Of a DNA stretch of 64,000 nucleotides, positions 942 to 20,431 are shown piece after piece; the first letter of the stretch is position 1; every line of letters starts with the position of its first letter. Source of the DNA: an uncultured Gammaproteobacteria bacterium. GTDB taxonomy: Bacteria; Patescibacteriota; Patescibacteriia; SBBC01; CAIJZX01. The notes beneath the pieces are model-generated. The model had not been told where the DNA came from, ran no database searches, and was given only the letters and a program-made list of their open reading frames with translations. Made by a program: the position numbers and the translations under genes. Location: NCBI GenBank assembly GCA_964349465.1, contig CAYGGC010000006.1, forward strand, positions 1,218-65,217, read 5' to 3'.

Positions 942-952
942 ACGGTTTCGAT

Positions 953-1189: not shown

Positions 1190-1192
1190 AAA

Positions 1193-1639: not shown

Positions 1640-1650
1640 AGGGTTGATGG

Positions 1651-2154
1651 TTAGACCTTCAACGTGTCTTCATCGAGGATTTCCTCGAGCTTTTTGTCGA
1701 GCTGGGCGCTGTCCATCGGGGCGGCTTCGACTGGCGCGGCGATTGGAGCGCTTGGGGCGTTATCGGCGACGATCGCGCTGGCGACTTCCTTTTCCTTGTC
1801 GGCTTGTCGGCGAGCGGCGATATGTTCTCGCAGTCGTTCTTCGGCGGCGAGTTGCTCTGGTGACTTGACGATGAATGAAGTCACTTGGTGACGGACGATG
1901 CTGTCGTTCAAGCGCAGAATATTTTCGAGCGCCTGAAGTTTTGTGGATTCGATCTCAAACGTGATGAGATCGTAGTATCCATGGCTCAGATGGTCGATCT
2001 CGTAGGCGAGCTTCCGCTTACCCCAAAAATCTTCCTTGATCGGATTTCCGCCTTGCTGTTTGACCAGCTCACGGATCGTTTGGACATGGCTCTGGGCTTC
2101 TTCTTCGGTTTTGTTCCCGGGAAGGATATAGAGCAGTTCGTAGTGTTTGAGCAT
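1651..2154 (-). CDS. rpsF: 30S ribosomal protein S6
   Basis: The ORF is trimmed to the internal Met (MLKHYELLYIL...). The longer N-terminal extension of the listed ORF is Arg/Ser-rich junk. The product matches S6 and has an acidic C-terminus. Confidence 0.8.
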   Translation of the reverse strand: MLKHYELLYILPGNKTEEEAQSHVQTIRELVKQQGGNPIKEDFWGKRKLAYEIDHLSHGYYDLITFEIESTKLQALENILRLNDSIVRHQVTSFIVKSPEQLAAEERLREHIAARRQADKEKEVASAIVADNAPSAPIAAPVEAAPMDSAQLDKKLEEILDEDTLKV

Positions 2155-2366
2155 TGATGCTGCTGAGGAATAAAAAAGCGATGGACGTGCGGGCCGTTTT
2201 TGTCCCGCCGTAATGGCGGGACTACTTCCGGGTCCCGATCGACTTCGGGACACATGCATCGATGGCCAGACCTTACCAGAAAGCCCAATATTTGGCAAGT
2301 CCTGGTCGTATGGTCGCGACTACACCTGGTTGGGCGTGGCGGAGAAATAGGGTATACTGGCGCGGT

Positions 2367-3572: not shown

Positions 3573-3593
3573 GTCACTTTCTTTGGAGGCGGG

Positions 3594-3623
3594 GATAAAA
3601 AAAGACCGGGATGTTCTCCGGTC
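3594..3623 (-). terminator. rho-independent terminator (minus strand)
   Basis: A GACCGGG/CCGGTC hairpin is followed on the minus strand by a T7 run (the plus strand reads ataaaaaaa). Confidence 0.5.
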
Positions 3624-4117
3624 GAAGGTCAGGCAGCTAGGTCTGCCTTAGTTTGGATCACCCCCTTCTAGCGAGTGTCGGCGCGGTGGTCGTTGAGGTA
3701 CGGCGCCAGAGACATCACTGAAGGCACCTCCTTCGTGGAAATGGCCGGGCTGATGGTTGGGGTGTCGGTAAAAGGTTCGCTAGCTGAACCGGGTTAGCAT
3801 CAGGAGGGCGAGACCGATGGCGCTCACCCGTACACGGTGTCGATTGCGGGCGGCAAAGTGTCGGGCCGCGGTGTTCTTGGCGTTGTGAATTCGGCGCCTC
3901 ATGGCCCTGCTCGAACGAGCGGTGCCAGGGGTAAAGCGGTGAGGAGTCTCAGGACGCGGAGAACGGGCTGCCGTACATACCTCCCTGTTGAAGTGCACTC
4001 GGACGTGGGAAATGAAAAAAGCTACCCAGAGTATACCTCCGACTTACACCTTCGTGAATTGTTCGTCAAGCCCCCCACACCAAAACTGAGGCAACAGTTT
4101 TGGTGTGGGGGCAAGAC

Positions 4118-5206
4118 CTAGGCCGCAACTCGAAAGAAGACGACATCACCATCGTGGATGATGTATTCTTTGCCTTCAATCCGGAGTTTTCCGGCCGTTT
4201 TTGCCGCTTCCCATGAGCCCGCGGCGACCAGATCAGGATAGCTGACCACTTCTACTCTAATGAAAGTCTTTTCGAAATCGGTGTGGATAACGCCAGCGGC
4301 TTGGGGAGCTTTTGTTCCGATTGGAACTGTCCAGGCCCGTGTTTCGTCGGCACCGGTCGTCAGGAAGGTGATGAGACCAAGTGTTTGGTAGGCGAGCTGA
4401 ATGAGCCGATCGAGGCCCGAGGCGGCTAACCCGAGCTCGGCGAGATAGGCGGCAGCGTCTTCGGGCGGCAAATCAGCTAACTCCTGCTCAACCTTCACGG
4501 CCACGATGATTGTTTGGTCAGGCGGCAGGTTGAAGTCGCTGGCCTGCGCCGAGGCGAGCTGATTTTCGCTAACATTCACGACGTACAGTAGGGGCTTACT
4601 GGTGAGCAGTGTTAAGGTCTTCACTAATACCAGCTCGTCGTCGGTCAGGCTCATCGTCCGGACCGGATGGCCGGCGCCGAGATGTGCGTGAACTTTTTCG
4701 ACCAAGGTTAATTCAGTTTGCGCGGCTTTATCTAGACCAGCTTTCTTTTGTTTCGTGAGCGTCTCCAGTCGCTTTGTGACTGTGGCGAGGTCAGCCATAG
4801 CCAATTCAATCTCAATCGTGGTGATGTCGGACGTGGGATCGACTTTCCCTGCAACGTGGATAATATTCGGATCCTCAAAAGCGCGAACAACTTCGGCGAT
4901 TGCATCGACCTCACGGATATTGGCTAGAAATTTATTCCCAAGACCTTCTCCTTGGTGAGCGCCGGCCACTAACCCAGCAATGTCGACAAATTCAACGGTT
5001 GTGGCAATAGTTTTTTTCGAGGACTCCTGCCTCGTTAAAACATCGAGCCGTTCATCAGGGACGGGGACAACGCCAACATTTGGATCAATGGTTGCGAATG
5101 GGTAATTCGCTACATCGACCTGCTTTTTGGTCAGGATTTGGAAGAGGGAGGATTTGCCGACGTTGGGGAGGCCGACGATACCGATCGTTTGTTTTGAACC
5201 TGACAT
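4118..5206 (-). CDS. ychF: ribosome-binding ATPase YchF (Obg-family GTPase)
   Basis: Diagnostic N-terminus [14 protein letters not shown] and a C-terminal TGS domain; 362 aa. Confidence 0.9.
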
Positions 5207-6788
5207 AGTTTGAGGTTATGGGTAAATATCCGCTCACTTCTAGCTTTTCTTGCGTAGCAACGATTCTTTCTATGACGTTGGTTACTATTTCACGTCTAAG
5301 GCCAAAATTCAAGCCAACAAGGGCTTCTTTTGACTCCTCCGCGAAGGCATTGATCTCATCGCTATTCGGTAAGTCCGTCGCATTTACCTGCTCTTCCTGT
5401 TGTTTGGCCTTTACTGTTTGGAGTCCTAGCGAGGCAACCTGTTCTTTTAACGGCGCTATATATTCCTTTAACTGATCAATACTAAAGAGCCCAGCCCCGT
5501 ATGCCTTGGTGTAGCGTTCCTCCTGTTCTTTTAGTTTCAAAATACTTTTTTCCATCACTTTTGTATCTCCAACTGCAGAACCCGCCCTATTTTTCCGTGT
5601 ATTAGTCCAGCGCTTAAGATACATCTCAAGCAAGTCTGGTGAACTCATTAATCCTGCAATTTTGTCCCAAACTAATCTATCAGCTATTCGTGCATTAAGA
5701 CCTCTTTCCTGACAAGTACGAGGCAGGGGAGCGCTTAATACCCTATCAGTACATCTGTAGTAGAGGTGCTTTCCTTGTTGTGGGCCCTCGCCCGCACGTG
5801 TACGGCCACAGACACATCGTATCTTACCTGAAAGCAGGTACTCATTTTTTTTATTTCTTTTACATAAAGCGAAGTTAGCTTTTATCTGCTCACGCGCTCG
5901 TATGAATAACTTCTCATCAATTATCGGCGGCACCGGGATCTTCGAGGCGATCCAGTCTTCCTCCGGCTTAATTCTTCTACTACTCTTCTTCATTTTGCGG
6001 TACTTTTCTTTGTTGGTAGGATTTTCGGGAACCACGGCGTAAGAGCTACCCCAGTGAGCCTCCCCAATATAAGTCCTGTTCCTTAACATCGTGGTGAGGG
6101 TGCTAGTAGCCCAAACGCCACGCCTACTTAATCGTGGTTTAATGCCTAGTTCGTGTAACTTTCTAACTATCGTCCTAAGGGTTAATCCTTCCTCGCCAAC
6201 CCAGCTAAATATTATTTTTACAACCCTGGCTTCTTCGGGATCGATTTCATAGTAACCATGCCGGCCTTCTTCTTTCTTAATATAGCTGTAGCCATACAAC
6301 GGTCTACTCACCAGAAGATGGCCCTCTTTTACCTTACGGAGCTTCCCTAACCGGAAACGTTCAGAAATTTTCGCTCGTTCATATTGTGCGAACAAACCTT
6401 TAACCCCATATAATATTTTGTCTTCCTCGTTTTTAGGAGTAGATGTAGTAACAAAAAGTACCTCTATACCAGCCTCTCGTAATTCGTCCATGACCAGTTC
6501 TTGATACGAATATCTACGGGCTAACCGATCTGGGTCATACATCAAAACTGCTTCCCATGTTTTCTTTTTTGCATCTATGCGAAGTTGGTCAAGCGCTGGC
6601 CTTACAATGTTATCTCCACTCCAACCATTATCGAGATATTCTTGGACGATAGTATATTGGTTTTGTTTAGCAAAGTCTTTTACAGCACCAAGCTGAGTTT
6701 CAATAGTTCCCTCATTCTCTTGGTTCGAGGTTGAAACCCTTCCATAGATGGCAATCAGTTTCATTTCTTTTTTGAGGGAGTCGGTCAT
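5085..6788 (-). CDS. large serine recombinase (integrase)
   Basis: N-terminal resolvase domain (LIAIYGRVSTSNQ), followed by a recombinase domain and a Cys-rich zinc-ribbon (CVCG...YYRCT). The last ~40 codons read into host DNA antisense to ychF. Confidence 0.8.
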   Translation of the reverse strand: MTDSLKKEMKLIAIYGRVSTSNQENEGTIETQLGAVKDFAKQNQYTIVQEYLDNGWSGDNIVRPALDQLRIDAKKKTWEAVLMYDPDRLARRYSYQELVMDELREAGIEVLFVTTSTPKNEEDKILYGVKGLFAQYERAKISERFRLGKLRKVKEGHLLVSRPLYGYSYIKKEEGRHGYYEIDPEEARVVKIIFSWVGEEGLTLRTIVRKLHELGIKPRLSRRGVWATSTLTTMLRNRTYIGEAHWGSSYAVVPENPTNKEKYRKMKKSSRRIKPEEDWIASKIPVPPIIDEKLFIRAREQIKANFALCKRNKKNEYLLSGKIRCVCGRTRAGEGPQQGKHLYYRCTDRVLSAPLPRTCQERGLNARIADRLVWDKIAGLMSSPDLLEMYLKRWTNTRKNRAGSAVGDTKVMEKSILKLKEQEERYTKAYGAGLFSIDQLKEYIAPLKEQVASLGLQTVKAKQQEEQVNATDLPNSDEINAFAEESKEALVGLNFGLRREIVTNVIERIVATQEKLEVSGYLPITSNYVRFKTNDRYRRPPQRRQILPLPNPDQKAGRCSELPIRNH

Positions 6789-6793
6789 AAGAT

Positions 6794-6982
6794 TTACCCG
6801 TTTCGGGTTCTCTTCAATAAGTTTTCTTTTTCGGTTTCAGGTATTCGCCAAAGCGCGGTTTTACCCTTCCCTAACTTATATCCTTTCAGTAGGCCAGTTT
6901 TCAGCCATCTCTCAACGGTTCGGGGATGTACCCGAAAGTATTTTGCTACCTCACCTTTAGTAAGAAAATTCATTAAAATCAT
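6794..6982 (-). CDS. excisionase/AlpA-like HTH DNA-binding protein
   Basis: 62-aa protein with a helix-turn-helix (EVAKYFRVHPRTVERWLKTG), immediately upstream of int. Confidence 0.55.
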   Translation of the reverse strand: MILMNFLTKGEVAKYFRVHPRTVERWLKTGLLKGYKLGKGKTALWRIPETEKENLLKRTRNG

Positions 6983-6989
6983 TATATTC

Positions 6990-7202
6990 CTAATTGCTCT
7001 TAGATGTCAAAGTCTCATTCTTGGGGGTTTCAGCTTTTCTCTCCCTTCTTCTAAGCACTTCATCAAACAAAATACTGAAAGCCCGATCTAGTGCTGGTAT
7101 GGCAGACTCACCAAGCTCAACCTGTTGGTAGTTTAGTTTTACCAACATGGGCTTATTGTTGTGTTTTTGTGGTAGCCGCTTATCCATAGCGTAGCCACTC
7201 AA
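6990..7202 (-). CDS. hypothetical protein (island)
   Basis: An ORF with island-like composition that is tightly packed against its neighbours. Confidence 0.3.
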   Translation of the reverse strand: MSGYAMDKRLPQKHNNKPMLVKLNYQQVELGESAIPALDRAFSILFDEVLRRRERKAETPKNETLTSKSN

Positions 7203-7283
7203 TGGTGAGCGACGACGCTACGGTCTTCGTTTTGGGCTAAGTTATTTCGTAACTAGGTCATAAATTTAATGAAAGTATGATTT

Positions 7284-7649
7284 TCATACACTTTTACCAA
7301 GTAGTTCGTCGAGCGCAGAGATGACCCCTTTTGCGTCCATGCCTATAAGCTCGCGCTCACGTTCACGAATGATTTGCTTCAGTTCGCGTTCATTTGCTAT
7401 CGGATAGCCCAGATCGAGGTTACGTGTTGCTTCAATCATTTTCACCAAATCATTGTCCTCCAAAGCTTTTTTTAGAAGTTTCATGCGCCAAGGTCGATAA
7501 TGCCGGCGGATCACCCTAGCGTAGCCATTCGTGTATCTAGCCTTTAGCGCGCTTTGATATGCATTACCGAATGTAGGCGAGGCAATATCAATATATGCCC
7601 GAAGGAAGTCGAACTCTTGAAGGGTAATACTAAACTTCTTATTACTCAT
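7284..7649 (-). CDS. hypothetical protein (island)
   Basis: 121-aa ORF with island-like composition and no recognisable motif. Confidence 0.4.
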   Translation of the reverse strand: MSNKKFSITLQEFDFLRAYIDIASPTFGNAYQSALKARYTNGYARVIRRHYRPWRMKLLKKALEDNDLVKMIEATRNLDLGYPIANERELKQIIRERERELIGMDAKGVISALDELLGKSV

Positions 7650-7753
7650 ATGCTTTCATACCTACAAGGAAAATCAGGGTTATCAAAGTCAATTGTTGTT
7701 TATGAATAGTCATTATCTTTTTGTTATTTATAATTTATCAAACTCCCTGCTAA

Positions 7754-9187
7754 CTATGATATTGGTATAAGGGCCTGTTGCTTTTCTTGCCCGTGCTCTT
7801 CGTCAAAGAGGGAATTTAGTTCGGCTTCAGAAAGTTCGAGTTGATCAGTAGCGCCTAGCTCTACGTTCCTCCACCCCGTTACCTGCACCTTGTTCTTGGT
7901 TAGGGGATTCATTTCTGACTTTTTCCCATCAATAATATAATCGGCATAATTGCGGATTTTTTTGCCTAGATTTTCCATTGTATCGGCAGGAAGGTTTTTA
8001 GAGCGCGCGTATCGGATAAAAGCCTCGTGCATATCCGTCTTACTTATCCACTCCCCAGTAGCCTCTTTGAGACAGTCATGCACAAACTGTGCAATGACAG
8101 AGCCAGAGCGTTGCATCTCCTTTTTAATTTCATGCGGCGCTTTTGTATAGCTGAACCTTTGGTTTTCCAGCAATCGTTTTAACCCCACAAGCGCAAAGTT
8201 TAGTAGCCCGGACAATTCTTCGGGGGTAGAGATTTTGTCGATCAAAAACTTATCCGGGGTAGCTACTTCATTTCTGAAATGAATAATTATCCATCGACCG
8301 AAATATGCGGCATCGTTAGGGTCTTTAACGTCAGGAATTTTATTGCAAGCAAAAGTCAACTTGGCATAGTTCTCAAATTGAAACTGGTCGCCAAATTTAT
8401 ACTCGCCGGTGATGCTACCGCCACCAGTCGCAATCTTAAAAGCCCCGTTGTCGCTAATATCCTTAAATGATAGGTCATCGTAAATGTTTATATGCTTATT
8501 ATAGAAATGAGCAGCCGCGAACTTGTCAGAAGTGACTTTCTGTAAACTCACGCCCGATACGTTCTCTTTTCCAATGAATCTCTCAAAAAGTCTTAGGAGC
8601 GTTGTCTTGCCTGTATCTCCCTCGCCTACAAAAATTATTGCCTTTTTTATGAAATAAGTTCTGTACAGGATGTACCCGAACCACTCCTGAATTAAAGGCA
8701 CGTCTTGCTTGTCCAGTACTTCCAAGAGAAACTTTTTAATCACTGGACAATCAGCATCCCTAACAAAAGAAACGGGGATCTTATGAAAAAATAGATTCTT
8801 CGAATCATGCGCGCTTATTTTGCTGGTTTTAATATCTAATACTTCATTTTCAAGATTTATCAATTCCCTGCCAACCTTAAAATCTTTTCGATCCATTGTT
8901 GTTGAATCTTTAATCTTTTCAATAATCTCGTTTTTGTAGTGCTTACTAACCAACGATCTTAGTATCCTTTGTATTTCTGACCTTATTGAGTTGCCCCCGG
9001 GTACATAAATGCCATTTTTATAAAGATAAATATCGCGTGACTTCTCCCCAATGGTTTTAAGTTGGTATCTGTCGATTAAATAGTCCGCAATGCTTTGCGA
9101 GCCTAAAGATTTATCTGTTAGATAGAGGCTTCTCAGCCCTTCCTCTTCTTGATCTTGTTCGATTATATTTTGTGTTTGAGGACTCAT
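7754..9187 (-). CDS. phage/plasmid primase-helicase (D5_N plus SF3 P-loop NTPase, P4-alpha-like C-terminal domain)
   Basis: Walker A motif VGEGDTGKTT, and an overall sequence like phage-associated D5/P4 primase C-terminal domains. Confidence 0.65.
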   Translation of the reverse strand: MSPQTQNIIEQDQEEEGLRSLYLTDKSLGSQSIADYLIDRYQLKTIGEKSRDIYLYKNGIYVPGGNSIRSEIQRILRSLVSKHYKNEIIEKIKDSTTMDRKDFKVGRELINLENEVLDIKTSKISAHDSKNLFFHKIPVSFVRDADCPVIKKFLLEVLDKQDVPLIQEWFGYILYRTYFIKKAIIFVGEGDTGKTTLLRLFERFIGKENVSGVSLQKVTSDKFAAAHFYNKHINIYDDLSFKDISDNGAFKIATGGGSITGEYKFGDQFQFENYAKLTFACNKIPDVKDPNDAAYFGRWIIIHFRNEVATPDKFLIDKISTPEELSGLLNFALVGLKRLLENQRFSYTKAPHEIKKEMQRSGSVIAQFVHDCLKEATGEWISKTDMHEAFIRYARSKNLPADTMENLGKKIRNYADYIIDGKKSEMNPLTKNKVQVTGWRNVELGATDQLELSEAELNSLFDEEHGQEKQQALIPIS

Positions 9188-9441
9188 ATCTGGACATGTA
9201 AAATCGGATTTTTAAACTTTAAAGTCCAACGTTTTGCGCATCGATCACATACAAATACTATTTCAGATTGTCCACTTTCCTCATCCATTCCCTGAAGACA
9301 AGCCCTGCCGGTACCGACACGGCAATGTGGGCACTTCTGTAGTGCTTCTTTGTTTTCAACATTACCGTCTTGATCCAGCTTGACGACTGTATTGATAACA
9401 ACCTCAGCGTCGAACATTCTTTGATCATTACGTAATTTCAT
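9184..9441 (-). CDS. small zinc-ribbon protein
   Basis: Two CxxC pairs (CPHC...CDRC). It overlaps the primase start by 4 nt, so the two genes are translationally coupled. Confidence 0.5.
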   Translation of the reverse strand: MKLRNDQRMFDAEVVINTVVKLDQDGNVENKEALQKCPHCRVGTGRACLQGMDEESGQSEIVFVCDRCAKRWTLKFKNPILHVQI

Positions 9442-9494
9442 ACCAATGGGGTTATTGTAAGAAAGCCCACTAATGGCTTCACAGGGTCTCTGCT

Positions 9495-9539
9495 GGGTTT
9501 AGAAAGCAAAGCCACTAGCGGGCTTTGCTTTCTAAACCC
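9495..9539. repeat. perfect 19-bp-stem inverted repeat (GGGTTTAGAAAGCAAAGCC-N7-GGCTTTGCTTTCTAAACCC)
   Basis: Seen directly in the sequence. It lies in the divergent intergenic region next to the primase operon. Confidence 0.8.
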
Positions 9540-10021
9540 AGAAAACCGCAATCTCATGATTGCGGTTGCGGTTTTGGTAGCTATTTAAAAAAGGCTACCA
9601 CCGCATCCCACAATGTGAGATGAAATGGTAGCCCCTCAACTTTCCCTCTACCCAGCGGAGCACTTGAGCCCCGACTAATTGTCAATAATGGAATTATAGT
9701 CGATCTGTCTTTAATGTCAATGAGTTTATACACACTTTCGCTTTCTTTCTGTAAAGCGAAATCCAAACTTTAAAAATGTGTTAAAACCTGATATCCTGTA
9801 GCAACAACTTAATAGATCAGATTTGCCTAAACTCTATGGAATTTTCGTAGGGCATGGCAAAAAAATCCACAAGTAGAAACGGTCTTTTTGACCGGGTACT
9901 ACTTGTGGTCTATCTCCGAAAGGGGGTAGGGCGATCGAAAGGTCGCCGCCCGGATTAAGAGACCGTTTTAAGTTGGTCTTCTGCCGGTAAAGAAAAGACT
10001 AAATTCCTAACAGAAGATATT

Positions 10022-10234
10022 ATGGAAAAAGAACCATACAAGCCCACTGTTCTTCCAGCGAAAGAAGATCCGGCGAATCCCGATAACTGGGAATACGATG
10101 CTAATATGCAAGGTTTTCCCGGGCAGGTTTATTCTCGCAAGCTGACAGAAAAACAGAAGGGCTGGATAGTTATTGCAAAGATTACTTTTTGGGGAGTTTT
10201 GGCGTGGACTATCATTAAGTATCTAATTCTATGA
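10022..10234 (+). CDS. small membrane protein
   Basis: 70 aa with a C-terminal transmembrane helix; island cargo. Confidence 0.4.
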   Translation: MEKEPYKPTVLPAKEDPANPDNWEYDANMQGFPGQVYSRKLTEKQKGWIVIAKITFWGVLAWTIIKYLIL

Positions 10235-10440
10235 AAAAACATCTTTACTATTTAGTTGGAATTACAGTCCTAATTTTTGCGATTGGCTATTTGTTTTCAC
10301 AATATATAGCCTACAAGCAGTTTCGCCTATCACAAGAGAAAGCGATACAGGATTGTGTAGAAAAGACTATTGGAACAAATACCGCTGGCTTCATTGCTTC
10401 GAATGCAAAACAAAAGTGTGTGGAAAAGTTTTCCCAATAG
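10231..10440 (+). CDS. small membrane protein
   Basis: 69 aa with an N-terminal transmembrane helix. Its start overlaps the upstream stop (ATGA). Confidence 0.4.
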   Translation: MKKHLYYLVGITVLIFAIGYLFSQYIAYKQFRLSQEKAIQDCVEKTIGTNTAGFIASNAKQKCVEKFSQ

Positions 10441-10586
10441 TTTTTATTGGCTGGAAGGGGTTGCCCCAACGGGCATCCCTGTTAGCGACAAAAAAGTATC
10501 CACAGATACCCTCTTTGTTCGTTTTTGTGGTAAAATAGATTTAGATAAAAATAGGCCAATTTAAATATAAAACTGGGCGATTTATT

Positions 10587-11186
10587 ATGACTACCAACGA
10601 TAGAATCATACGTAGCGCCCTAAAGAAGAAACTACAAGAAACGCACAAAGACGATCCTAAGCTAAGGATCGTTGAGGAGTTGGGCGTTAAACATGGGGCT
10701 GCCAGAGTTGATATTGCTGTTATCAATGGAGTTCTGCATGGTTATGAAATAAAAAGTGATCGGGACACCTTGCTTCGTTTACCTGAACAGATGGCTGCAT
10801 ATAATTCTGTTTTTGATCAAATAACTTTAGTCGTTGGGAAAAGTCATTTGCATGAAGCAATAAATGTTGTTCCGGATTGGTGGGGGATTACGATTGCAAA
10901 GATTGATTCAGCTAACGTCGTTGTTTTTAGCTGTATACGTGAAGCGAAAAAAAACCTTAAGCAAGACACTATTTCCATAGCAAGGCTTTTATGGAAAGAT
11001 GAGGCGCTAGAAATTTTAGAAGAAGCTGGTCAAGCGGATGGAATTCGCTCAAAAACAAGGGGCTTCATATATGAAAGGTTGTCTGAAGCATTCGATCAGA
11101 AGATTCTCCAAGAAAAGGTTAGAAACGTATTATTTTTTAGGGAAGGTTGGAGATCTGATTCGCCACTAGTACTAAATGGTGGTTAA
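10587..11186 (+). CDS. sce7726-family-like protein (PD-(D/E)xK-like motif)
   Basis: The block ELGVKHGAARVDIAVINGVLHGYEIKSDRDTLLRLPEQ matches my recollection of the sce7726 family, which pairs with sce7725/Beta proteins. It has the D..E.K spacing of restriction-like nucleases. Confidence 0.45.
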   Translation: MTTNDRIIRSALKKKLQETHKDDPKLRIVEELGVKHGAARVDIAVINGVLHGYEIKSDRDTLLRLPEQMAAYNSVFDQITLVVGKSHLHEAINVVPDWWGITIAKIDSANVVVFSCIREAKKNLKQDTISIARLLWKDEALEILEEAGQADGIRSKTRGFIYERLSEAFDQKILQEKVRNVLFFREGWRSDSPLVLNGG

Positions 11187-12264
11187 CACCGGCGCGTAAC
11201 CAAGTTCGCGGGCTACCCGTGTTTGGCGTATCAACGTCTTCACCTTTTTCTGCTATGTACGCATCGCCGTAGCTAAAGCCTTTGCCCTTGTACTCTGGCT
11301 GACTCATAAGTAGTTGCGCATGAGAAGGATATTGAGAGTGCCCGGGGCCTTCATTCCCATCCTTGTCTATTTTATGCAGAGCCTCGCCTCGCATGATTAC
11401 CCACTCGCTTTCACCAGAATATCTTATACTAGCGCTCGGATTTGCTTCTGGATTTGGCTCAGTATAGATTGGGTGCTGGATTGTGTAATCAGCAAATGCG
11501 GGTTTTCTTTTTTGTGTTCCCGAATAAATCTCTTTCAACCAGTAAGCCCAATCAGAGCGAGGAATCCTATAAGTGGCGTGTGGGCTAAAGCGAGAAAGGT
11601 CGAAAGGAAATGCCCCCCCAGCGACCGTAAACGTTCTCCATCGTATAAGGTCGGGGATATTATTAATAGATTTAACGATTTTGGAATATTCTTCTTGAGG
11701 CATACCCTCCACGAGTTCAAAGTCGACTAAGAGGTCGACTTGTTCGTGTTTGAGATCATTTCTTTTTATAAACTCATTAATACTTGTAGCAAGCTTATTA
11801 GAAGAGAGATCAGCACGTAGTATTCTCAAGCATACACCACTTTCGTATTGCTTTATTATTTTTATGATCGTGCCTTCAACATCTATATCGCTATTTATCC
11901 GAATAACGGGAATAACTCGAGAGCCGATAGCAGGTCCTTTACTCATGATTTCTGTGTAGCCCCACTTTTGCAGCGCCCCGCTTGTCAGAAGATTAAGGTC
12001 AATGAATATTGGACTATTGCCCCAATACTTCAGTATTTCTTTTGGCAGGTTGGGTAATGTCCCCTTTAACTTCTCAATAGATTGAGTCTTATACTCTTCA
12101 GGAGTTTTTTTGGCCTCCCCCCTTTTTAATCTTTTACGGGCGGGCATTATTAACTCTAGTAAAGGCGTGATTATTAGCCTGTCTTTTTCAGTAAGCTCTT
12201 TTAAGGCCTCTTTTTCAGCGGTTTTCCACCGCAATATTGGTACGTAGTGTTTTGCGTCAAACAT
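11137..12264 (-). CDS. Beta-protein family (sce7725-like) protein
   Basis: The N-terminus HYVPILRWKTAEKEALKEL...ITPLLEL matches my recollection of the Beta_protein/sce7725 family. The ATG overlaps the stop of the upstream HTH-ImmA gene. Confidence 0.5.
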   Translation of the reverse strand: MFDAKHYVPILRWKTAEKEALKELTEKDRLIITPLLELIMPARKRLKRGEAKKTPEEYKTQSIEKLKGTLPNLPKEILKYWGNSPIFIDLNLLTSGALQKWGYTEIMSKGPAIGSRVIPVIRINSDIDVEGTIIKIIKQYESGVCLRILRADLSSNKLATSINEFIKRNDLKHEQVDLLVDFELVEGMPQEEYSKIVKSINNIPDLIRWRTFTVAGGAFPFDLSRFSPHATYRIPRSDWAYWLKEIYSGTQKRKPAFADYTIQHPIYTEPNPEANPSASIRYSGESEWVIMRGEALHKIDKDGNEGPGHSQYPSHAQLLMSQPEYKGKGFSYGDAYIAEKGEDVDTPNTGSPRTWLRAGVNHHLVLVANQISNLP

Positions 12265-12265
12265 A

Positions 12266-13495
12266 TTATTTAGTAGGCCATTTAATATCTTGGAAATAAT
12301 CTCTAACTTTTGCCGCATTTGTAATCGCATTTAAGTTTGGAGATTGATAGCGCTTATGTTTATGCATCATTATTCCAGTAACAATAGCCACGTTAATCCC
12401 AAGCTCATCGGCTAAACTTTGTGCCGCAACTGGTGAGGGTACTCTTTTTGCAGGACTTTTTTCCCATTTGTCATTAGGTAGCAGAGCTTCTCCTGCTAGC
12501 ATGTCTGCCTCGGTTTCCTTCGTATCAATCTCCGCGCCCCCTACCCCTTCAATCTCATCGTAGAATAGGTTGATATTTTTATCGAAGTGCAAGGCAATGT
12601 GAGCCAGTTCATGCATTAAAGTAAACCAAAAGTTATCTAGTCGATCATATCTAACTGTTAGACCAATGACAGGGTTATCTTTATTTATTAAGATTGTTGC
12701 CCCATCTAAATAGGTTTTAGTTAAATGAGGCGCAATAACAAGTTTAATCCCAAACTTTGTTAAGTATTGTTGAGCCACAATAGGGCTTTTTTCTTTCGTA
12801 CTTAACTTTGCCATTTCTCTCATAAAAGCTAGATTTACAGCTCCATTCTTGTATTTAACTGGAACCTTCACCTCCTCAGATTTTTTTAAGATATATTCAG
12901 ACCATGCCGCAAGCGCGCGTTTGTCAGTTAAAAGAGAAGATCGATAATGAGATTGTCGTGGCATTCCGGCAAGTTGGAACTCAGGGCCGATAACTGAAAA
13001 GAAGTTTCTTAGTAGTTTTTCTTTATTTGAGACATCTAATCTACCTCGCCCAAAGTAACCACGTTCTGACATTTCTCTAATTACGCGAGTATCCCAGCCA
13101 CTATAAAGCGCGTTTTCGCTTTGGTCAGGTTTTTTGAGAAGAACTTTCGCCGGAATACCTAAGCCGGCCTCCAATAATCTAATCATGTCGAGTGTAAGCG
13201 TTCTTTTTCCAGAAAGAATTTCTGATACTCTACTTCTGCTACCTAGATAGGGGATTAGATCGGCAGGTGTCAAATCCGCTTGCTCCATTCGGAATTTAAT
13301 GGCTTCGACAGGATCGGGGAGTGTTGCAGAAAAAGCTTTAGCTTCGTAGTCAGCTACAAGAGTACTTAGAATACTAAGTTGTTCTCCTTCTTGTGATTCA
13401 GGATCAGGATCACCAGCCATAAGCGCCTCAATAAATTCGAGCGCTTCTTGGTAGTCTCTTTCAGTTCTTATTACTTTAATGTCAGGCATGGTCAT
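12266..13495 (-). CDS. HigA-type HTH antitoxin fused to an ImmA/IrrE-family zinc metallopeptidase
   Basis: The N-terminal ~120 aa look like HigA (IKFRMEQADLTPADL...SRVSEILSGKRTLTLDMIRLLEAGLGIP). The C-terminus has the HEXXH motif HELAHIALH. Confidence 0.75.
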   Translation of the reverse strand: MTMPDIKVIRTERDYQEALEFIEALMAGDPDPESQEGEQLSILSTLVADYEAKAFSATLPDPVEAIKFRMEQADLTPADLIPYLGSRSRVSEILSGKRTLTLDMIRLLEAGLGIPAKVLLKKPDQSENALYSGWDTRVIREMSERGYFGRGRLDVSNKEKLLRNFFSVIGPEFQLAGMPRQSHYRSSLLTDKRALAAWSEYILKKSEEVKVPVKYKNGAVNLAFMREMAKLSTKEKSPIVAQQYLTKFGIKLVIAPHLTKTYLDGATILINKDNPVIGLTVRYDRLDNFWFTLMHELAHIALHFDKNINLFYDEIEGVGGAEIDTKETEADMLAGEALLPNDKWEKSPAKRVPSPVAAQSLADELGINVAIVTGIMMHKHKRYQSPNLNAITNAAKVRDYFQDIKWPTK

Positions 13496-13500
13496 ATTGG

Positions 13501-13788
13501 CTATTTAATTTGCCACTTGTCGTATTCTTTATGGGTACCAACTTTTTTGATAAGCACCACCCCAGTCTTATAAGCGATTCTCACCCATATCCGATACTTG
13601 TTCCAGCAAATGTCGAAGATTGCTTGTAGGTTGCCCGGTAGGCTAACCCGGGGGTATTTATTTCGGACATCTTGAGGTGTTTTCCATTCAGCAGCCTCGA
13701 CTTCTGCCTCCCAAGATTCGAGCTGCGATCTGGCATCAGCATGCTCTTCCCCAAAATCGCGCAGTTGTTGTTTTCCTAGTAAGTTCAT
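13501..13788 (-). CDS. higB: type II toxin HigB (RelE/ParE fold)
   Basis: LRDFGEEHADARSQLESWEAEVEAAEWKTPQDVRNKYP...ICWNKYRIWVRI...VGTHKEYDK matches the HigB toxin family. The gene is trimmed to the internal Met (MNLLGKQQL). Confidence 0.75.
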   Translation of the reverse strand: MNLLGKQQLRDFGEEHADARSQLESWEAEVEAAEWKTPQDVRNKYPRVSLPGNLQAIFDICWNKYRIWVRIAYKTGVVLIKKVGTHKEYDKWQIK

Positions 13789-14253
13789 GATACGTAGTAG
13801 TGGAGTAGTGTACATTAAGACCGTTCCCATGGTGGGAACGATACCAAATGTACAAAGTATTGTCAATAGCCCCGTAATTGGGGGTGTGTGGGCATAGTCG
13901 GGGAACCTTTTTACGAGTATATACCCTCTAAAAAGAATCCCATTTTTTGGACTGGGGGTCATTCTACAGGCACTGATCGTACGATTCTGCCCTGTAGGCT
14001 ACGGCTCACGATGGCGCGCTCATAGCGAGGCGCAGGGAGCCTTATGGTAAAGGCGAAGGGTATCAGTTTTGCCGATGTATCGGCATGGTCATGTCGTGCT
14101 GTACTCGAACCATGCCGATTTTGAATGACATAGAGGCCCCGATGGTAGCATGGGGTTGACGAAGACTCAAGAGAGGAGTATCGATAGAGAGGACGGACCC
14201 CCCGGCTCGTCTTCGTCCCTTTCGTTCGCGTCCCTATTTCCAAGGAGCTGGAA

Positions 14254-14523
14254 ATGGACAACGATGATCTGCTCATTTTGAGCCATGCTGTGGAGGCAAC
14301 CAAGCCACTCGGTACTCGCGTTTCGCGGCTAACCACCTTGCGCCGTTCCTACGTCTTGCTCCGCCTCGCGTTTCGCGCGGCTCGTCGTCGGAAGCTCGAT
14401 GCCTGCCGAAGATTCCTCGACCGGGCGCTTCCCGGGTTCTGCCAGAGCAACGACCTCGTGTCGTGCACTAGCGAACTTCTCGGGGTGTACAACCACCTCG
14501 GCCACCAGCTTCACGCAGCCTAA
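14254..14523 (+). CDS. hypothetical protein
   Basis: An AAGGAG Shine-Dalgarno sequence lies 7 nt upstream; the composition matches the host. Confidence 0.4.
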   Translation: MDNDDLLILSHAVEATKPLGTRVSRLTTLRRSYVLLRLAFRAARRRKLDACRRFLDRALPGFCQSNDLVSCTSELLGVYNHLGHQLHAA

Positions 14524-14635
14524 CCCCGATAGGCTGTTTTTCTTTTGATCGGTAATGATATTGACAACGCACGATGCCAAACGTAGTATGCGGCCATCGA
14601 TCTTTATATTACCCTTCCAACCGCGGAGGTACGGT

Positions 14636-15202
14636 ATGCAGTGGTTTGTCGTACTGACCGCGTTGATGGGCGGTCTCATGGTAACCCCAGTTTTGGCTGA
14701 GGAGCATGAGGACGTAGAGCTTGTCCCTACGACTATCGGTATTACCGTGACGGACCGTGCTGGCCAGCCCTTGACCACACGGGATAGTGTGGTCGTGGTT
14801 ATCTGGGACCAGTTTGGCAAACGTCCCTGGTTGCCGGAACATTGGACCGAGCTTGTGCTGAAATCAGGTCCAGTTGGTGCTCTGGTGCCAACCCGAATCC
14901 CGTTGAATAAAGCTGGGCTGCGCTACTTGTGGTGGTATGCCAAAGTCTTCCATCGGCCGACGATTAAACTCGGTTTCACGGTCCGAGATGGACAGGGTCA
15001 GCTGATTCAACCACCTGTCGGCATTCGGATTGTGATTTGGCAGCTGGGCCCGGATCCATGGCCGCACGACCTCTGGGTTACGGTCGCTGGTGACCTTGAT
15101 CGAGTAGGGCACATCGTTGTACCGGTCAATTTCCCGCTAAATGGAGCAGTGGTGAAAAACTTGACCACCCTCTCGAAGAGCCGTGAACAGCGCCAGCCGT
15201 GA
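14636..15202 (+). CDS. secreted hypothetical protein
   Basis: Signal peptide MQWFVVLTALMGGLMVTPVLA, with GGAGG upstream. Confidence 0.5.
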   Translation: MQWFVVLTALMGGLMVTPVLAEEHEDVELVPTTIGITVTDRAGQPLTTRDSVVVVIWDQFGKRPWLPEHWTELVLKSGPVGALVPTRIPLNKAGLRYLWWYAKVFHRPTIKLGFTVRDGQGQLIQPPVGIRIVIWQLGPDPWPHDLWVTVAGDLDRVGHIVVPVNFPLNGAVVKNLTTLSKSREQRQP

Positions 15203-15225
15203 CCATATATAGGATACTTGGCATA

Positions 15226-15251
15226 GACCGTTCTGGACGAACGGTTTTTTC
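15226..15251 (+). terminator. rho-independent terminator
   Basis: A CCGTTC-TGGAC-GAACGG hairpin followed by TTTTTT. Confidence 0.65.
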
Positions 15252-15303
15252 TGTCCTTAGTGCCTAGACGACAAAGCATCAAAAAAATACTATACTAGAC
15301 TCT

Positions 15304-17733
15304 ATGATACCAACAATGAAACGTTCCATAGTTGTACTGGGAGTAGCCGGACTCTGTCTTTGTGTCCGTGGTTCAACTTTGCGAGCACAAACCCCACCGA
15401 CGCTGTCCATCCCACTGACGGTATCTGATGTGACCGGCTACGTTCGTTCGAATGATCCGGTCACGAGCGGGATCCCAATTCCGCTATCAGCGGTTGGCGA
15501 CTCGTGGTCCTTATTCGATGGGGCGACCGAGGTGCCACTGCAAACACAGGTCTTATCAGGCCAGGCAGTTCCTTGGCTTATGCTTGATTTCCCTGCGTCC
15601 GTTAGCGCGATGGGAACAACAACCTATACGTTGCAGAATACTGCTCCGACCGCGCCGGCAGACAGCCTGAGCTACGTTCATACCAGCTCGAGTGAAACAG
15701 TAACGACGGGTCCATTGAAGTTTACCGTGGGCACAAGTCCGTTTCTTGGTATTCAGGATCTCTGGTTCGACGCAAATGCGAATGATGTCTTTGAGGTAGG
15801 GGAACATCGGATTAGTAGCGGAAGCGTTAATGCCTTACGCGTAACGAACGCAGAGACGGGCGTGACAACCGCCGCCACGCCAACGTCGGTCAGTTGGGAG
15901 TCACAAGGAACCCAACGAGCTACCCTGCGGATTGATGGAACCTTCACGGAGGCCAGTTCCACCTTGTTGACATTTACTCTGCGTATGACCGCCTGGGCGG
16001 GACGCAGTGATCTGGGAATCGAACTTGTTTTGCGGAACTCAAACTCATCGGCGCAGAAATTCGTAAAACTCTCTTCGGCGATATTTCAAATTGGCAGCTC
16101 CGCGACAACTCTGCGACCAAACCGGTCGAGCGATCGAGTGTGGGGACTAGCCGATGCTACTGGTCAGACCATTCAATGGTTGCCGGTGAGTGAACTTGTT
16201 TCAACCGCGTATGATCCGGTTGGTGATCCGCGAATCGAGCGCCAGACAGCGCTGTTTACGGTTGATACGAATGGCGGCTTGGTCCTCGGTGACCTGTCTC
16301 ACCAAAGCGGGTCTGCGACCATTGATTTTAATTCTGGGCTTTCTCCGCTCGAGCAAGCCTCGGCCCAATATCGAGCTATGACGCCGTTATTCGCCCGCGC
16401 TGATGCGAGCTGGTATTCGGCCCAGAACGCGCTTGGTGTGCCGGGGTTTGGGACGTTAGCAGACGAGCAATCGGCCTATACGGCGTGGAATTGGACCTGG
16501 CCGAATCCTAATAACGGGTATGCCGCGGTTCCGCATCTCAATCGGCCAACAAATTTTTACCCATCCTGGAGTAATACGAACGGTGCCGAAGACCCGGAAG
16601 GGGATTTTGTCGCACAGAACAACCTGATGTTTATTCGATTAGGCGATCAGGCCTATAAAGATCGGATGGATGCGTATGTATGGTATGCGAAAAATCAGTG
16701 GATTTATCGGACGGACGGGTTTACTGCTTATGGCAATGACTATTGGGATGGCCCGCACGCGGTTAACCGGGGTACCGACACTATTGCTGGAGCAACAAGT
16801 ACCGATCAAAATCGGATAACCAAAGATATCGCGTATGGGCGGGTTGATTATTCACACGCCTGGGCGAGTGGTCTCGTGGATTACTATTATCTTACTGGTG
16901 ATCGGGATGCTCTGGACACGGCGATTGATGTGGCCGAAGAGTGTCGGAACCAGAGCGATTGGTTCAGCGCTGGCACACCGTCTGGTGCAGTTAGCGATAG
17001 TCCGCGTGCCAAGGCACGCTGCTGGCAAAGCACCTTACGGGTGTGGGAAGCGACTGGTGATGCGCAGTGGCTAACCTCGGCAAACCACTATCGGGATTTA
17101 TTTCTCCAATCAACATCGTATTCGGCAGAACGAATGTATTTTGGGTACACCTGTGATCTCGGTGCAGCCTATTGCGCTCGGTATCCAAACGGTACTTTTA
17201 ACTCACCCTTCCAAATTGGTGACACGGTTCACGTCATGTACCACGACTATGTTCTTTTCAATAACCAGGCGGTGAAAGATCGTCTCATTGAAATTGCTAA
17301 CTTTGCCATGCAACATGGACTGGATCCGGCAACTGGGGCGACCGGGGATTATATCGTTTTTGTTGGGTCAAATGTTTATCATCATACGTATTCTCAATTT
17401 CGCGGGACAACGCCGACCTACACCGTGAACTATTCCTCGAGCTCATTGGCATTTATTGACACGTTAGCCATTGGCTATCGCTTGAACGGAAACTTGGCCT
17501 ATTTGGGCCGAGCAAAAAGCTTGTTATCGGCCGCGACGAAGCGCCTTGGCATTCAGCCGTATACCGAAACCATTGCTGATGCCAATCATGTTGGTCAGTT
17601 TATAGGTAATATGAACGGCAACGCGAATACACGGTATAATGATGATCTTACCTATACGGCTCTGTTCCTACGGGATGCATATTTGGCCGATAGTATAGTG
17701 CCTGGACGCGTGACGAATTTGAGCGCGCAATAA
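15304..17733 (+). CDS. large secreted protein, possible alpha/alpha-toroid polysaccharide lyase/hydrolase-like
   Basis: It has a signal peptide, and the Trp/Tyr-rich C-terminal half resembles heparinase/alginate-lyase-like toroid domains. The functional call is weak. Confidence 0.5.
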   Translation: MIPTMKRSIVVLGVAGLCLCVRGSTLRAQTPPTLSIPLTVSDVTGYVRSNDPVTSGIPIPLSAVGDSWSLFDGATEVPLQTQVLSGQAVPWLMLDFPASVSAMGTTTYTLQNTAPTAPADSLSYVHTSSSETVTTGPLKFTVGTSPFLGIQDLWFDANANDVFEVGEHRISSGSVNALRVTNAETGVTTAATPTSVSWESQGTQRATLRIDGTFTEASSTLLTFTLRMTAWAGRSDLGIELVLRNSNSSAQKFVKLSSAIFQIGSSATTLRPNRSSDRVWGLADATGQTIQWLPVSELVSTAYDPVGDPRIERQTALFTVDTNGGLVLGDLSHQSGSATIDFNSGLSPLEQASAQYRAMTPLFARADASWYSAQNALGVPGFGTLADEQSAYTAWNWTWPNPNNGYAAVPHLNRPTNFYPSWSNTNGAEDPEGDFVAQNNLMFIRLGDQAYKDRMDAYVWYAKNQWIYRTDGFTAYGNDYWDGPHAVNRGTDTIAGATSTDQNRITKDIAYGRVDYSHAWASGLVDYYYLTGDRDALDTAIDVAEECRNQSDWFSAGTPSGAVSDSPRAKARCWQSTLRVWEATGDAQWLTSANHYRDLFLQSTSYSAERMYFGYTCDLGAAYCARYPNGTFNSPFQIGDTVHVMYHDYVLFNNQAVKDRLIEIANFAMQHGLDPATGATGDYIVFVGSNVYHHTYSQFRGTTPTYTVNYSSSSLAFIDTLAIGYRLNGNLAYLGRAKSLLSAATKRLGIQPYTETIADANHVGQFIGNMNGNANTRYNDDLTYTALFLRDAYLADSIVPGRVTNLSAQ

Positions 17734-17756
17734 AAAACCGACCAACAATCAGTCGG
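17731..17756 (-). terminator. putative terminator for the DUF360 operon
   Basis: A CCGAC/GTCGG hairpin with an A7 run on the plus strand, which reads as a T run on the minus strand. Confidence 0.4.
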
Positions 17757-17771
17757 TCGTGACGCTGTTAA

Positions 17772-18113
17772 TTATTTTTTGTTGCCAAAAACCTGGGAGG
17801 CGGACCAGCTGATCAAAGTCAGGACAATTGAACCAAGAACCGCGGCGAGAAAGCTATCTATAGTAAATGTTCGAAACATCCGGTCGACGAGTAACAACAT
17901 TCCCGCGTTAATGATCAATAACCACAAACCGAGCGATAGAATGGTTATTGGAAGGGTAATAATAATGAGTAGCGGACGAGCCGTGGCATTCAGTAATCCC
18001 AATACCAATGCTACAAATAACGCCGTTCCAAAAGTACCCACATGAAAACCAGGGACGATGTAGGAAACCAGCATGACACTGATTGCTGAAGTGAGCCAGT
18101 TGAGGAGGATCAT
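17772..18113 (-). CDS. DUF360/phage-holin-4-like membrane protein
   Basis: Four transmembrane helices in the PGFxVxGF pattern. Confidence 0.55.
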   Translation of the reverse strand: MILLNWLTSAISVMLVSYIVPGFHVGTFGTALFVALVLGLLNATARPLLIIITLPITILSLGLWLLIINAGMLLLVDRMFRTFTIDSFLAAVLGSIVLTLISWSASQVFGNKK

Positions 18114-18424
18114 GGTAGTAGAGCCTGAAGAATACCGATCACGATCGCGAGCAACAGTGCGTCACTGAAGCTCTTAATTTTAAATCCGGCAAACCAGCCG
18201 CTGACTAGCCAGATGATGAAGGCATTAATGACAAAAACAAACAGCCCGAAGGTTAAGAGAGTCAGCGGGAAAGAAAAAAAAAGAAAAAAGGGTTTGAAAA
18301 AGATATTACACAGACCGATAGCGAGAGCGACGACGAGTGCCGTCGCACCGTTTTTCACATGAATATTTTTCCACCAGCGTGGCGCAAAGTAGAGAACAGC
18401 AACAGTGGCGAGGAAGTCGAGCAT
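18110..18424 (-). CDS. DUF360-like membrane protein (tandem paralogue)
   Basis: Similar transmembrane architecture to its neighbour, with 4-nt overlaps on both sides. Confidence 0.5.
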   Translation of the reverse strand: MLDFLATVAVLYFAPRWWKNIHVKNGATALVVALAIGLCNIFFKPFFLFFSFPLTLLTFGLFVFVINAFIIWLVSGWFAGFKIKSFSDALLLAIVIGILQALLP

Positions 18425-19209
18425 TATACTGCTAAGTTTACTGTATTTTTAAGTACAAAAGCAATGGTTAGTGGACCGACGCCACCGGGAACAGGGGAGA
18501 ACGCTGAGGATTTACTTTGGGCAGACCGCTCAACATCACCAACTGTTTTACCCTTGCTGGTTCGAATACCGACGTCAATCAAGATAGCACCGGTTTTGAT
18601 ATGGCGGGCGGTGAGCCGCGGCCCGCGCCCACTGGCGGTGATGATAACATCAGCGGTTTTTACCGGCAGGGACAAAATATTTTTCGGTGAAATGATACTC
18701 ACGTGGTGAAAAGAAAGGAGGCGCGCCAGTGACGTGGAAAAAACAGAATCATGACCGAGTAGAACGACGTTGGAAATTTTCGGCGGGTTGGCAAGTTTGA
18801 GGAGATGAAGGACGGCGGCGATCGTTGGCGGGGTCACGCGCGCTTCGGCCGTAAACCCATCAACATCTTTTCCGGCAGAGATACACGCCACGGCTCGGTC
18901 CGTATCAAGGCGCGAGGGGAGGGGGAGTTGCATAAGAATGCCGGTCAGATCGCGTCTTTGGCTGAGTTTCGTGATAGTTTTTTCTAAACTTTTCTGCGTA
19001 ACCGATGCCGGAAGGTGATGTTGCTCAACCGCAATGCCGACGGTGAGGGCTGCATTAGCCTTCAGACGTAAATACAGCGTTGCATCGGGGCGGCGCCCGA
19101 CTTGAATCGTCGCGAGACGTGGTTGACGGTGAAGTTTCGGTACATCTTTTTTTAGTTTGGCCAGAATCTTTTTCGCTTCACTTCGGCCATCGAGCACGCG
19201 TGGAGTCAT
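18424..19209 (-). CDS. folD: bifunctional methylene-THF dehydrogenase/cyclohydrolase
   Basis: FolD-like sequence (GILMQLPLP, DVDGF, GPLT). Confidence 0.85.
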   Translation of the reverse strand: MTPRVLDGRSEAKKILAKLKKDVPKLHRQPRLATIQVGRRPDATLYLRLKANAALTVGIAVEQHHLPASVTQKSLEKTITKLSQRRDLTGILMQLPLPSRLDTDRAVACISAGKDVDGFTAEARVTPPTIAAVLHLLKLANPPKISNVVLLGHDSVFSTSLARLLSFHHVSIISPKNILSLPVKTADVIITASGRGPRLTARHIKTGAILIDVGIRTSKGKTVGDVERSAQSKSSAFSPVPGGVGPLTIAFVLKNTVNLAV

Positions 19210-19210
19210 G

Positions 19211-20431
19211 TTAGATGGTAGGGTAGAGCGGATGACGTTGTGCGAGCGTTGAAATCACGCCGGCGGTTTGTTTTTTTACTTTTGTGCTTTTTGGCGCGCG
19301 GAGCCGATCAATAATCGTTTTCGCAAGGATGGTCATGTCCTTTTCTTTCAAGCCGCGCGAGGTGACGGCCGGTGTACCGAGGCGTAGACCGGATGGATGA
19401 AGCGGTGGGCGAGGATCATGGGGGATCAAATTCTTATTAACGGTCAGACCGATTGTTTCAAGCGCAGCTTCGGCCTCAGCGCCGGTGAGTCCGAGCGGAG
19501 TGACATCAGCAAGGATGAGATGGTTATCAGTCCCACCGGTGCTTACGTGGAGACCATGACGCTCCAGTTCGGCGGCGAGGGTTTTTGCGTTGGCAATAAC
19601 TTGGCGTTGATATTTTTTAAACGATGGCTTGAGCGCTTCAGCGAAGACCTGCGCTTTCCCGGCGATGACATGATCCAGTGGGCCGCCTTGCAGCCCAGGC
19701 ATAACGGCGCGGTCGAGGAGGGCGGCATGTTCTTTTTTGGCGAGAATCATCGCACCACGCGGGCCGCGGAGTGTTTTATGCGTCGTCGTGGTGACGACGT
19801 CAGCATGTGGAATAGGTGATGGGTGGAGTCCGGCCGCAACGAGTCCGGCAATATGCGCAATATCAGCGAGATGGATCGCGCCCACACTTTTTGCAATCTG
19901 ACCAAATTTTTTAAAGTTAATGATCCGCGGGTAGGCGCTTGCTCCCGAAATGATCATTTTCGGTCGATGTTTTTTTGCCAGACGCTCAACTTCGGCTTCG
20001 TCAATCCAGCCCTCACGATCGACGCCGTAATGTACGACATTGAAATATTTGCCGGAAATATTGCGAAGATAGCCATGGGTTAGATGGCCACCGGCATCAA
20101 GGGCCAAAGAAAGAATGGTGTCGCCCGGTTTCAGAAAGGCGAGGAAAACGGCGACATTGGCGATTGCCCCGGCGTGCGGTTGGACGTTAACATACTCGGC
20201 GTGAAATAACCGCTTGGCTCGCTGTATTGCTAGCCGTTCAACCTGATCAATAATGTCGTTGCCGCCATAGTAGCGTCGTCCCGGATACCCTTCAGAATAT
20301 TTATTCGTTAAGACGCTTCCAACCGCTTCCAAGACGGCTGGCGAGACAATATTTTCCGAAGCAATCAGGGTCAGTTCAGTGCGTTGTCGCTGAAGTTCGG
20401 CACGGAGGAGTTTACGAAGTTTTGGGTCCAT
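19211..20431 (-). CDS. glyA: serine hydroxymethyltransferase
   Basis: SHMT PLP-binding region TTTTHKTLRGPRG; 406 aa. Confidence 0.9.
   Translation of the reverse strand: MDPKLRKLLRAELQRQRTELTLIASENIVSPAVLEAVGSVLTNKYSEGYPGRRYYGGNDIIDQVERLAIQRAKRLFHAEYVNVQPHAGAIANVAVFLAFLKPGDTILSLALDAGGHLTHGYLRNISGKYFNVVHYGVDREGWIDEAEVERLAKKHRPKMIISGASAYPRIINFKKFGQIAKSVGAIHLADIAHIAGLVAAGLHPSPIPHADVVTTTTHKTLRGPRGAMILAKKEHAALLDRAVMPGLQGGPLDHVIAGKAQVFAEALKPSFKKYQRQVIANAKTLAAELERHGLHVSTGGTDNHLILADVTPLGLTGAEAEAALETIGLTVNKNLIPHDPRPPLHPSGLRLGTPAVTSRGLKEKDMTILAKTIIDRLRAPKSTKVKKQTAGVISTLAQRHPLYPTI

Follow-up and report, generated by a model that had tools for sequence, protein, structure and literature searches.

The stretch of DNA considered here (the window) comprises 64,000 nucleotides (nt) of contig CAYGGC010000006.1 and carries, at one end of an integrative element of about 9 kb, a group of genes that is very probably a divergent member of the PD-lambda-2 family of anti-phage systems. 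There are three genes on the minus strand, referred to here as A, B and C, and a fourth gene, D, on the plus strand, which converges on C. We give a probability of roughly 0.6 to the overall reading that the four genes form a PD-lambda-2 module, in which an autoregulated sensor/regulator cassette (A and B) is coupled to an effector pair (C and D, relatives of beta and cII). The locus is not a new kind of system: the three-gene type of operon is already known and has been validated experimentally elsewhere, and the new points are the fourth gene, for a predicted nuclease, and a control site, both of which are conserved. The evidence gathered here consists of gene order, protein families, conservation of catalytic motifs, synteny, the candidate operator and the modularity of the genes, and the features concerned are the following.

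13838..13866, minus strand: sigma-70-like promoter of the operon (TTGACA, 17 nt, TG-extended TATCGT)
13824..13838: candidate operator, palindrome TTCCC-N5-GGGAA, extended form CGTTCCCACCATGGGAACG; its first base is the last base of the -10 hexamer
13501..13788, minus strand: A, HigB-family RelE-like protein of 95 amino acids (aa); ATG at 13788, stop at 13503-13501
12266..13495, minus strand: B, HigA-type helix-turn-helix (HTH) domain fused to an ImmA/IrrE M78 zinc peptidase (HigA::M78), 409 aa (407 aa from the second ATG)
11137..12264, minus strand: C, Beta_protein family, predicted TIM barrel, 375 aa
11137..11186, both strands: 50 nt of dual-coding DNA, in which the Beta and sce7726 coding regions overlap 3′-3′
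10587..11186, plus strand: D, sce7726 / Phage_P4_cII family, predicted PD-(D/E)xK nuclease, 199 aa

An earlier note on this DNA had described three close-packed open reading frames (ORFs) on the minus strand, which is correct, with a 5-nt gap between A and B, which is also correct (the spacer is ccaat, followed by the ATG of B at 13495), and with an overlapping ATG and stop between B and C, which is not: the stop of B at 12268-12266 is followed by one base and then by the ATG of C at 12264, giving TAA-T-ATG. An alternative start at 12330 would give C an ORF of 397 aa that shares 65 nt with B. Because homologues of C begin at the MF..KHY position and the 1-nt spacer between B and C is seen again in many related loci, the Beta protein is most likely 375 aa long, not 397. 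The convergent fourth gene at 10587-11186 had been overlooked.

For A, B and C, the families proposed in that note (HigB, HigA-HTH::M78 and Beta_protein) were borne out by profile searches with PF09907, HTH_3, Peptidase_M78 and PF14350. A matches Pfam PF09907 HigB_toxin (E-value 7e-23) and the PADLOC model PD-Lambda-2_A (1e-34, residues 1-93 on a model of 94 positions), and has intact FN.xGNxYR and GTHKEYD motifs. The Pfam domains of B are HTH_3 at residues 67-116 and Peptidase_M78 at residues 248-352, and PADLOC PD-Lambda-2_B is matched from residue 3 to residue 403 (8e-132, model positions 1-398 of 402). HELAHIALH occupies residues 295-303 of B, and since H295, E296 and H299, together with the downstream E327, are invariant in 20 homologues, the M78 metal site of B is complete. 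C matches Pfam PF14350 Beta_protein (1e-56), contains the YVPILR...ITPLLE signature, and matches PADLOC PD-Lambda-2_C (7e-43) as well as PADLOC beta (5.6e-07). The label “sce7725-like” for C had to be dropped: the NCBIfam model sce7725_fam (NF033831, cut-off 60 bits) gave no match even at E<=10, and against the same model an E. coli beta protein scored no more than 12.4 bits. D matches NCBIfam sce7726_fam (1.7e-51; 174.8 bits, cut-off 70), the PADLOC “cll” model of gop-beta-cII (3.9e-24) and Pfam PF26915 Phage_P4_cII. Its D-X11-ExK motif, composed of D42, E54 and K56, shows no variation among 35 sequences, and with this conserved D...(D/E)xK motif and its restriction-endonuclease-like fold D belongs among the predicted nucleases of the PD-(D/E)xK superfamily; a sequence search of solved structures with D gave no match.

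PD-lambda-2 was obtained by functional selection in E. coli (ECOR42) and, as described by Vassallo et al. (2022, PMC9519451), is composed of a HigB-like protein, a HigA-like HTH::peptidase and a protein related to beta, the antitoxin of P4. For relatives of the window locus, the published data cover defence, the toxicity of B, its rescue by A and the requirement for C: in E. coli, PD-lambda-2 defends against lambda-vir via abortive infection, B alone is toxic, A rescues this toxicity, and C is dispensable for neutralisation but required for defence (PMC9519451). In the window these three families recur with order and orientation unchanged, C being co-directional with B and directly downstream of it; the PADLOC models fit all three proteins strongly, and both systems are on mobile elements. 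Thus, the earlier note was right to see a defence cassette carried by a mobile element, and was mistaken in taking it for a system not yet described, PD-lambda-2 having been published in 2022. The two systems differ in that the window proteins are only distantly identical to the E. coli representative (B 37%, C 24%, A 25%), in that A of the window keeps the HigB motifs whereas E. coli-type A is without them, and in that the window clade has the convergent, 3′-overlapping sce7726/cII gene whereas the E. coli loci are without it. A literature search, whose coverage was incomplete and which does not prove absence, found no mechanistic follow-up of PD-lambda-2; within the same incomplete coverage, the four-gene form, the promoter-operator, the split between intact and degenerate HigB and an explicit link between PD-lambda-2 and gop-beta-cII were not found either.

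Related loci were collected by a scan in which each species was represented by a single genome and an alignment of B homologues served as the query; 80 loci were obtained, and their gene content was scored by tblastn with the four proteins of the window. Where B is at least about 46% identical, 41/41 loci carry A-B-C and the convergent D wherever the contig is long enough; likewise, among the 80 loci, those with C and sufficient sequence downstream of it also have the convergent D (41 loci). An exception is L047, which has A-B-C, about 4.9 kb of downstream sequence, and no match to D. Loci with A-B-C-D span Planctomycetota, Chloroflexota, Patescibacteria, Acidobacteriota, Omnitrophota, Bacteroidota and Proteobacteria. 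The survey of gene neighbourhoods that had been suggested for the fusion protein finds Beta and sce7726 genes together with its homologues at this level of identity. A search of plasmids with B returned only relatives that are at most 40% identical, and metagenome contigs with the same protein match the window at 100% identity, hence they offer no alternative flank.

The 3′ ends of C and D overlap in all 41 of the 41 loci that have both genes, by 26-137 nt, and by exactly 50 nt in 21 of them (the loci entered as bearing the overlap are the window, at 11137-11186, and L001-L048, L075, L078, L081, L082 and L091-L094). The information content within the overlap is 1.36 bits/nt, compared with 0.69 in the flanking coding DNA, and such a doubling is expected for a dual-coding sequence. 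The conserved (I/V)NHH helix of Beta is antisense to the ...LNGG tail of the nuclease. A terminator scan of the C/D junction found none.

These observations bear on the question of whether the locus is one system or two uncoupled neighbours, i.e., a HigBA-like addiction module that stabilises the island and a separate beta/cII defence pair. Such independence is suggested by the occurrence of A-B without C-D beside unrelated genes, and of C-D without A-B in prophages and in E. coli. However, the unbroken company that C and D keep with B at high identity, the single nucleotide between the stop of B and the start of C, here and in many loci, and the need of E. coli defence for C along with A-B all argue for coupling, and we consider two independent modules to be quite improbable.

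The pairing of beta with a convergent cII gene is familiar from satellite phage P4, in which gop-beta-cII defends against lambda and P1, the trigger being the phage orf184 (Ghisotti 1990, Rousset et al. 2022). In P4 the layout is gop(+), beta(+), cII(-), and the NCBI name for cII is “sce7726 family protein”. The window, with its Beta protein and convergent cII (sce7726-family) gene, has the same arrangement of an upstream toxic module, then beta, then cII facing it, and in both cases the integrative element that carries it is small and encodes a P4-family primase. The differences are that no PADLOC gop match was obtained among the six proteins scanned, HigB and HigA::M78 standing in the place of gop; that cII of P4 is longer (264 aa) and 28% identical to D over 121 residues; and that beta and cII of P4 do not overlap but are separated by 27 nt, which hold an annotated terminator.

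In E. coli there are several forms of such loci. The first consists of three-gene HigB-M78-beta loci with no sce7726 gene, one of which spans exactly 2625 nt, the length of the ECOR42 system; the second has GNAT, M78 and beta with a convergent sce7726; and the third, in a lambdoid prophage, has beta and a convergent sce7726 alone. Four viral contigs likewise have beta and a convergent sce7726 alone, with an overlap of 14-80 nt. The general architecture is therefore X → beta ← cII, where X is gop, HigB with HigA::M78, GNAT with M78, or nothing. This shows that PD-lambda-2 and gop-beta-cII share a beta/cII core, and indicates that the three genes published for E. coli represent a reduced form, in which HigB is degenerate and the nuclease is absent. 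At the locus of E. coli 2014C-3075 (L081:3918-7015), a GNAT acetyltransferase, a short ImmA/IrrE peptidase of 283 aa, beta and a convergent sce7726 are adjoined by a relaxase gene.

The second conserved novelty lies upstream of A. The promoter TTGACA-N17-TATCGT is the best promoter-like site in the region (10/12 matches), and in most related loci a TTGAC -35 element is found at the same distance from the palindrome, whose start always lies about 28 nt past that of the -35 element. TTCCC-N5-GGGAA itself is present upstream of HigB in 43/74 homologous upstream regions, from several phyla, where 0.015 would be expected from shuffles. This is strong comparative evidence for a candidate operator, and the HigA-type HTH of B would be the domain that binds to it.

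An HTH domain and an M78 peptidase beside such a site could also be read as an ImmR/ImmA-type switch that governs the life cycle of the 9-kb element (excision, replication) rather than phage defence, as it is well established that HTH + M78 pairs control ICEBs1 and prophages, and the element at one end of which the cassette lies does encode a serine recombinase and a P4-type primase. However, the only copy of the palindrome in the 64-kb window is the one that precedes its own operon; the cassette recurs in many unrelated contexts; and a homologous system has proven defence activity. A life-cycle switch is therefore very improbable.

With regard to how A and B act, the closest solved relatives are HigB and HigA of E. 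coli K-12 (5ifg). A aligns over its full length with the mRNA interferase HigB (5ifg_A), residues 7-115 of B match the antitoxin HigA (5ifg/5ycl; E-value 5e-14), and the toxin-first order is the same; in the window, however, the HigA homologue has about 290 extra residues, which include the M78 peptidase, and there are two more linked genes. Thus, of a canonical type II HigBA module the HigB part is present, whereas in place of a stand-alone HigA there is the N-terminal domain of a 409-aa fusion.

According to the earlier note, HigB would be the toxin and effector, and the HigA::M78 fusion, as a self-inactivating antitoxin, would cleave itself on a signal, which would free HigB to stop translation and would de-repress Beta. 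A number of features fit this proposal: the FN.xGNxYR and GTHxEY motifs that A shares with the E. coli mRNA interferase HigB, the truly HigA-homologous N-terminus of B, the invariant metal ligands of the peptidase, and the candidate operator, which supports autoregulation. The two motifs are kept in every A of the 80 surveyed loci, the window included, and, with RelE, YoeB and YafQ as a guide, their positions are presumably those of the catalytic Arg, His and Tyr. Nevertheless, in the only relative that has been tested, it is B that is toxic and A that neutralises, and C is required. Moreover, the A proteins of the E. coli PD-lambda-2 type (86-92 aa; L083:3915-4175, L085:2824-3102, L086:3052-3315) are without GNxYR and GTHxEY, yet that system defends, so that the HigB ribonuclease cannot be the common effector of the family; nor does release of HigB give any role to the strictly conserved nuclease gene. 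This proposal is consequently unlikely. Loss of the motifs may explain why A is a mere neutraliser, not a toxin, in E. coli; in the window clade, where they are kept, HigB may be an active ribonuclease and may be released on a signal.

A and B are not confined to the company of beta and cII. Homologues of B that are about 40-45% identical are mostly without C and D, and in loci without beta/cII (L043, L049, L052, L056, L064, L066, L070, L072, L074, L079) A-B is often followed, after 20-340 nt and on the same strand, by a recognised defence gene, so that the pair behaves as a portable cassette. In this way A-B adjoins, on their upstream side, the Pycsar cyclase PycC (3e-215), CBASS TRIP13 (3e-78), HsdM, HsdR, a type IIG restriction-modification (RM) enzyme, AbiJ, a PLD-helicase and a NACHT protein. 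An analogous arrangement is known from CapH and CapP: CapP is an M78 peptidase that single-stranded DNA (ssDNA) activates and that cleaves the HTH repressor CapH, thereby switching on defence operons (Lau et al. 2022; Calloji et al. 2026), and a vapC-like gene with a CapH-CapP fusion upstream of DISARM has already been noted by the CapH/CapP authors. The likeness extends to the combination of an M78 peptidase with an HTH repressor upstream of defence genes, to a match of B to PADLOC capP (1.2e-08), and to the fusions and the toxin-like vapC-like partner reported for CapH-CapP; in the window, by contrast, the HTH is of the HigA type, is fused N-terminally to the peptidase and is paired with HigB. 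ImmR/ImmA of ICEBs1 and DdrO/IrrE of Deinococcus also have an HEXXH...E M78 metallopeptidase, the known substrates of which are HTH repressors, but there protease and repressor are separate proteins that serve a DNA-damage response, and no toxin, Beta or nuclease is attached.

Taken together with the published behaviour of E. coli PD-lambda-2, these features suggest how the four-gene module might work, with the trigger, the cleavage and the roles of Beta and of the nuclease being the parts that we infer. In the resting state, a complex of A and B would bind the palindrome via the HigA-type HTH of B and repress the operon, and A would hold B harmless. A cue from infection (ssDNA, DNA damage or a phage protein) would then activate the zinc peptidase, by analogy with CapP/CapH, ImmA/ImmR and IrrE/DdrO, and the peptidase would cut, in cis or in trans, the part of B that bears the HTH. 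Such a cut would lift the repression and, in the window clade, could also free HigB, which has a catalytically competent look. The TIM-barrel protein Beta, translationally linked to B, and the convergent PD-(D/E)xK nuclease would execute the abortive-infection step. De-repression would raise the expression of Beta, and transcription would continue, in antisense, through the 3′ end of the gene for the nuclease, which is a possible regulatory link between the two. The steps of cleavage and effector action are tentative, and we would not expect them to be right as readily as the module itself.

Several points weigh against the four-gene module as presented. The low identity of the window proteins to those of E. 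coli (given above for A, B and C) makes the transfer of function uncertain. The E. coli PD-lambda-2 loci are without sce7726, and the published clone could not have contained a complete one, which implies that defence in that branch does not require the nuclease. The matches of Beta are of a generic TIM-barrel kind only, the sole match in a sequence search of solved structures being a marginal one to malyl-CoA lyase (E-value 0.097). A pure repressor model does not obviously predict that B alone is toxic. The position of A-B next to other defence genes could in part reflect the clustering of genes in defence islands, and A-B is co-directional with its cargo, whereas CapH/CapP is divergent from the operon that it controls.

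The island that carries the cassette is recognisable by its GC content, which is 0.39-0.45 over about 5000-14000 and about 0.53 outside; this drop, together with recombinase and primase genes, agrees with the island context that had been claimed before. Its other genes lie within 5085-9441 and include those for an HTH_17 protein and a small zinc-finger protein, as well as the following.

5085-6788: large serine recombinase, 567 aa
7754-9187: P4-family primase (D5_N/DUF5906, TIGR01613)

The recombinase ORF, with its 3′ end, and the ychF ORF (4118-5206), with its 5′ end, overlap by about 120 nt. A search for tRNA genes in 1-20000 found none, and a search for direct repeats of attachment (att) sites at the ends of the island gave nothing convincing. 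With a primase, an integrase and beta/cII cargo, the island strikingly parallels P4. At 13964-13997, exactly where the GC content changes at the edge of the island, there is an imperfect palindrome that could be a terminator or serve in recombination. At 9493-9541 an inverted repeat, perfect over 21 nt, encloses a 7-nt loop, and a full-length match to the Rfam LOOT RNA (RF03000) at 9824-9947 on the plus strand (87.7 bits, gathering score 46.4) sits between the primase and zinc-finger genes and small membrane ORFs. The latter, a pair at 10022-10440 just upstream of sce7726 and on the same strand, overlap each other, encode 70 and 69 aa and contain hydrophobic segments; as parts of the system they were rejected, because the related loci of the survey do not conserve them.

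Both PD-lambda-2 and gop-beta-cII have been validated as defence systems, and the clade to which the window belongs is common in uncultured phyla. The co-occurrence described here suggests that tools for the annotation of defence systems should tie cII/sce7726 to calls of PD-lambda-2. A wider reading, speculative and in our view doubtful in its entirety, would join the two systems in one superfamily with a beta/cII core, in which A-B would be a portable, protease-gated switch for many defence systems, the active HigB ribonuclease would be a second effector, and the antisense overlap would alter the expression of the nuclease. If this were true, A-B would be a switch with its own operator, TTCCC-N5-GGGAA, that plugs into Pycsar, CBASS, RM, AbiJ, PLD-helicase and beta/cII systems alike.

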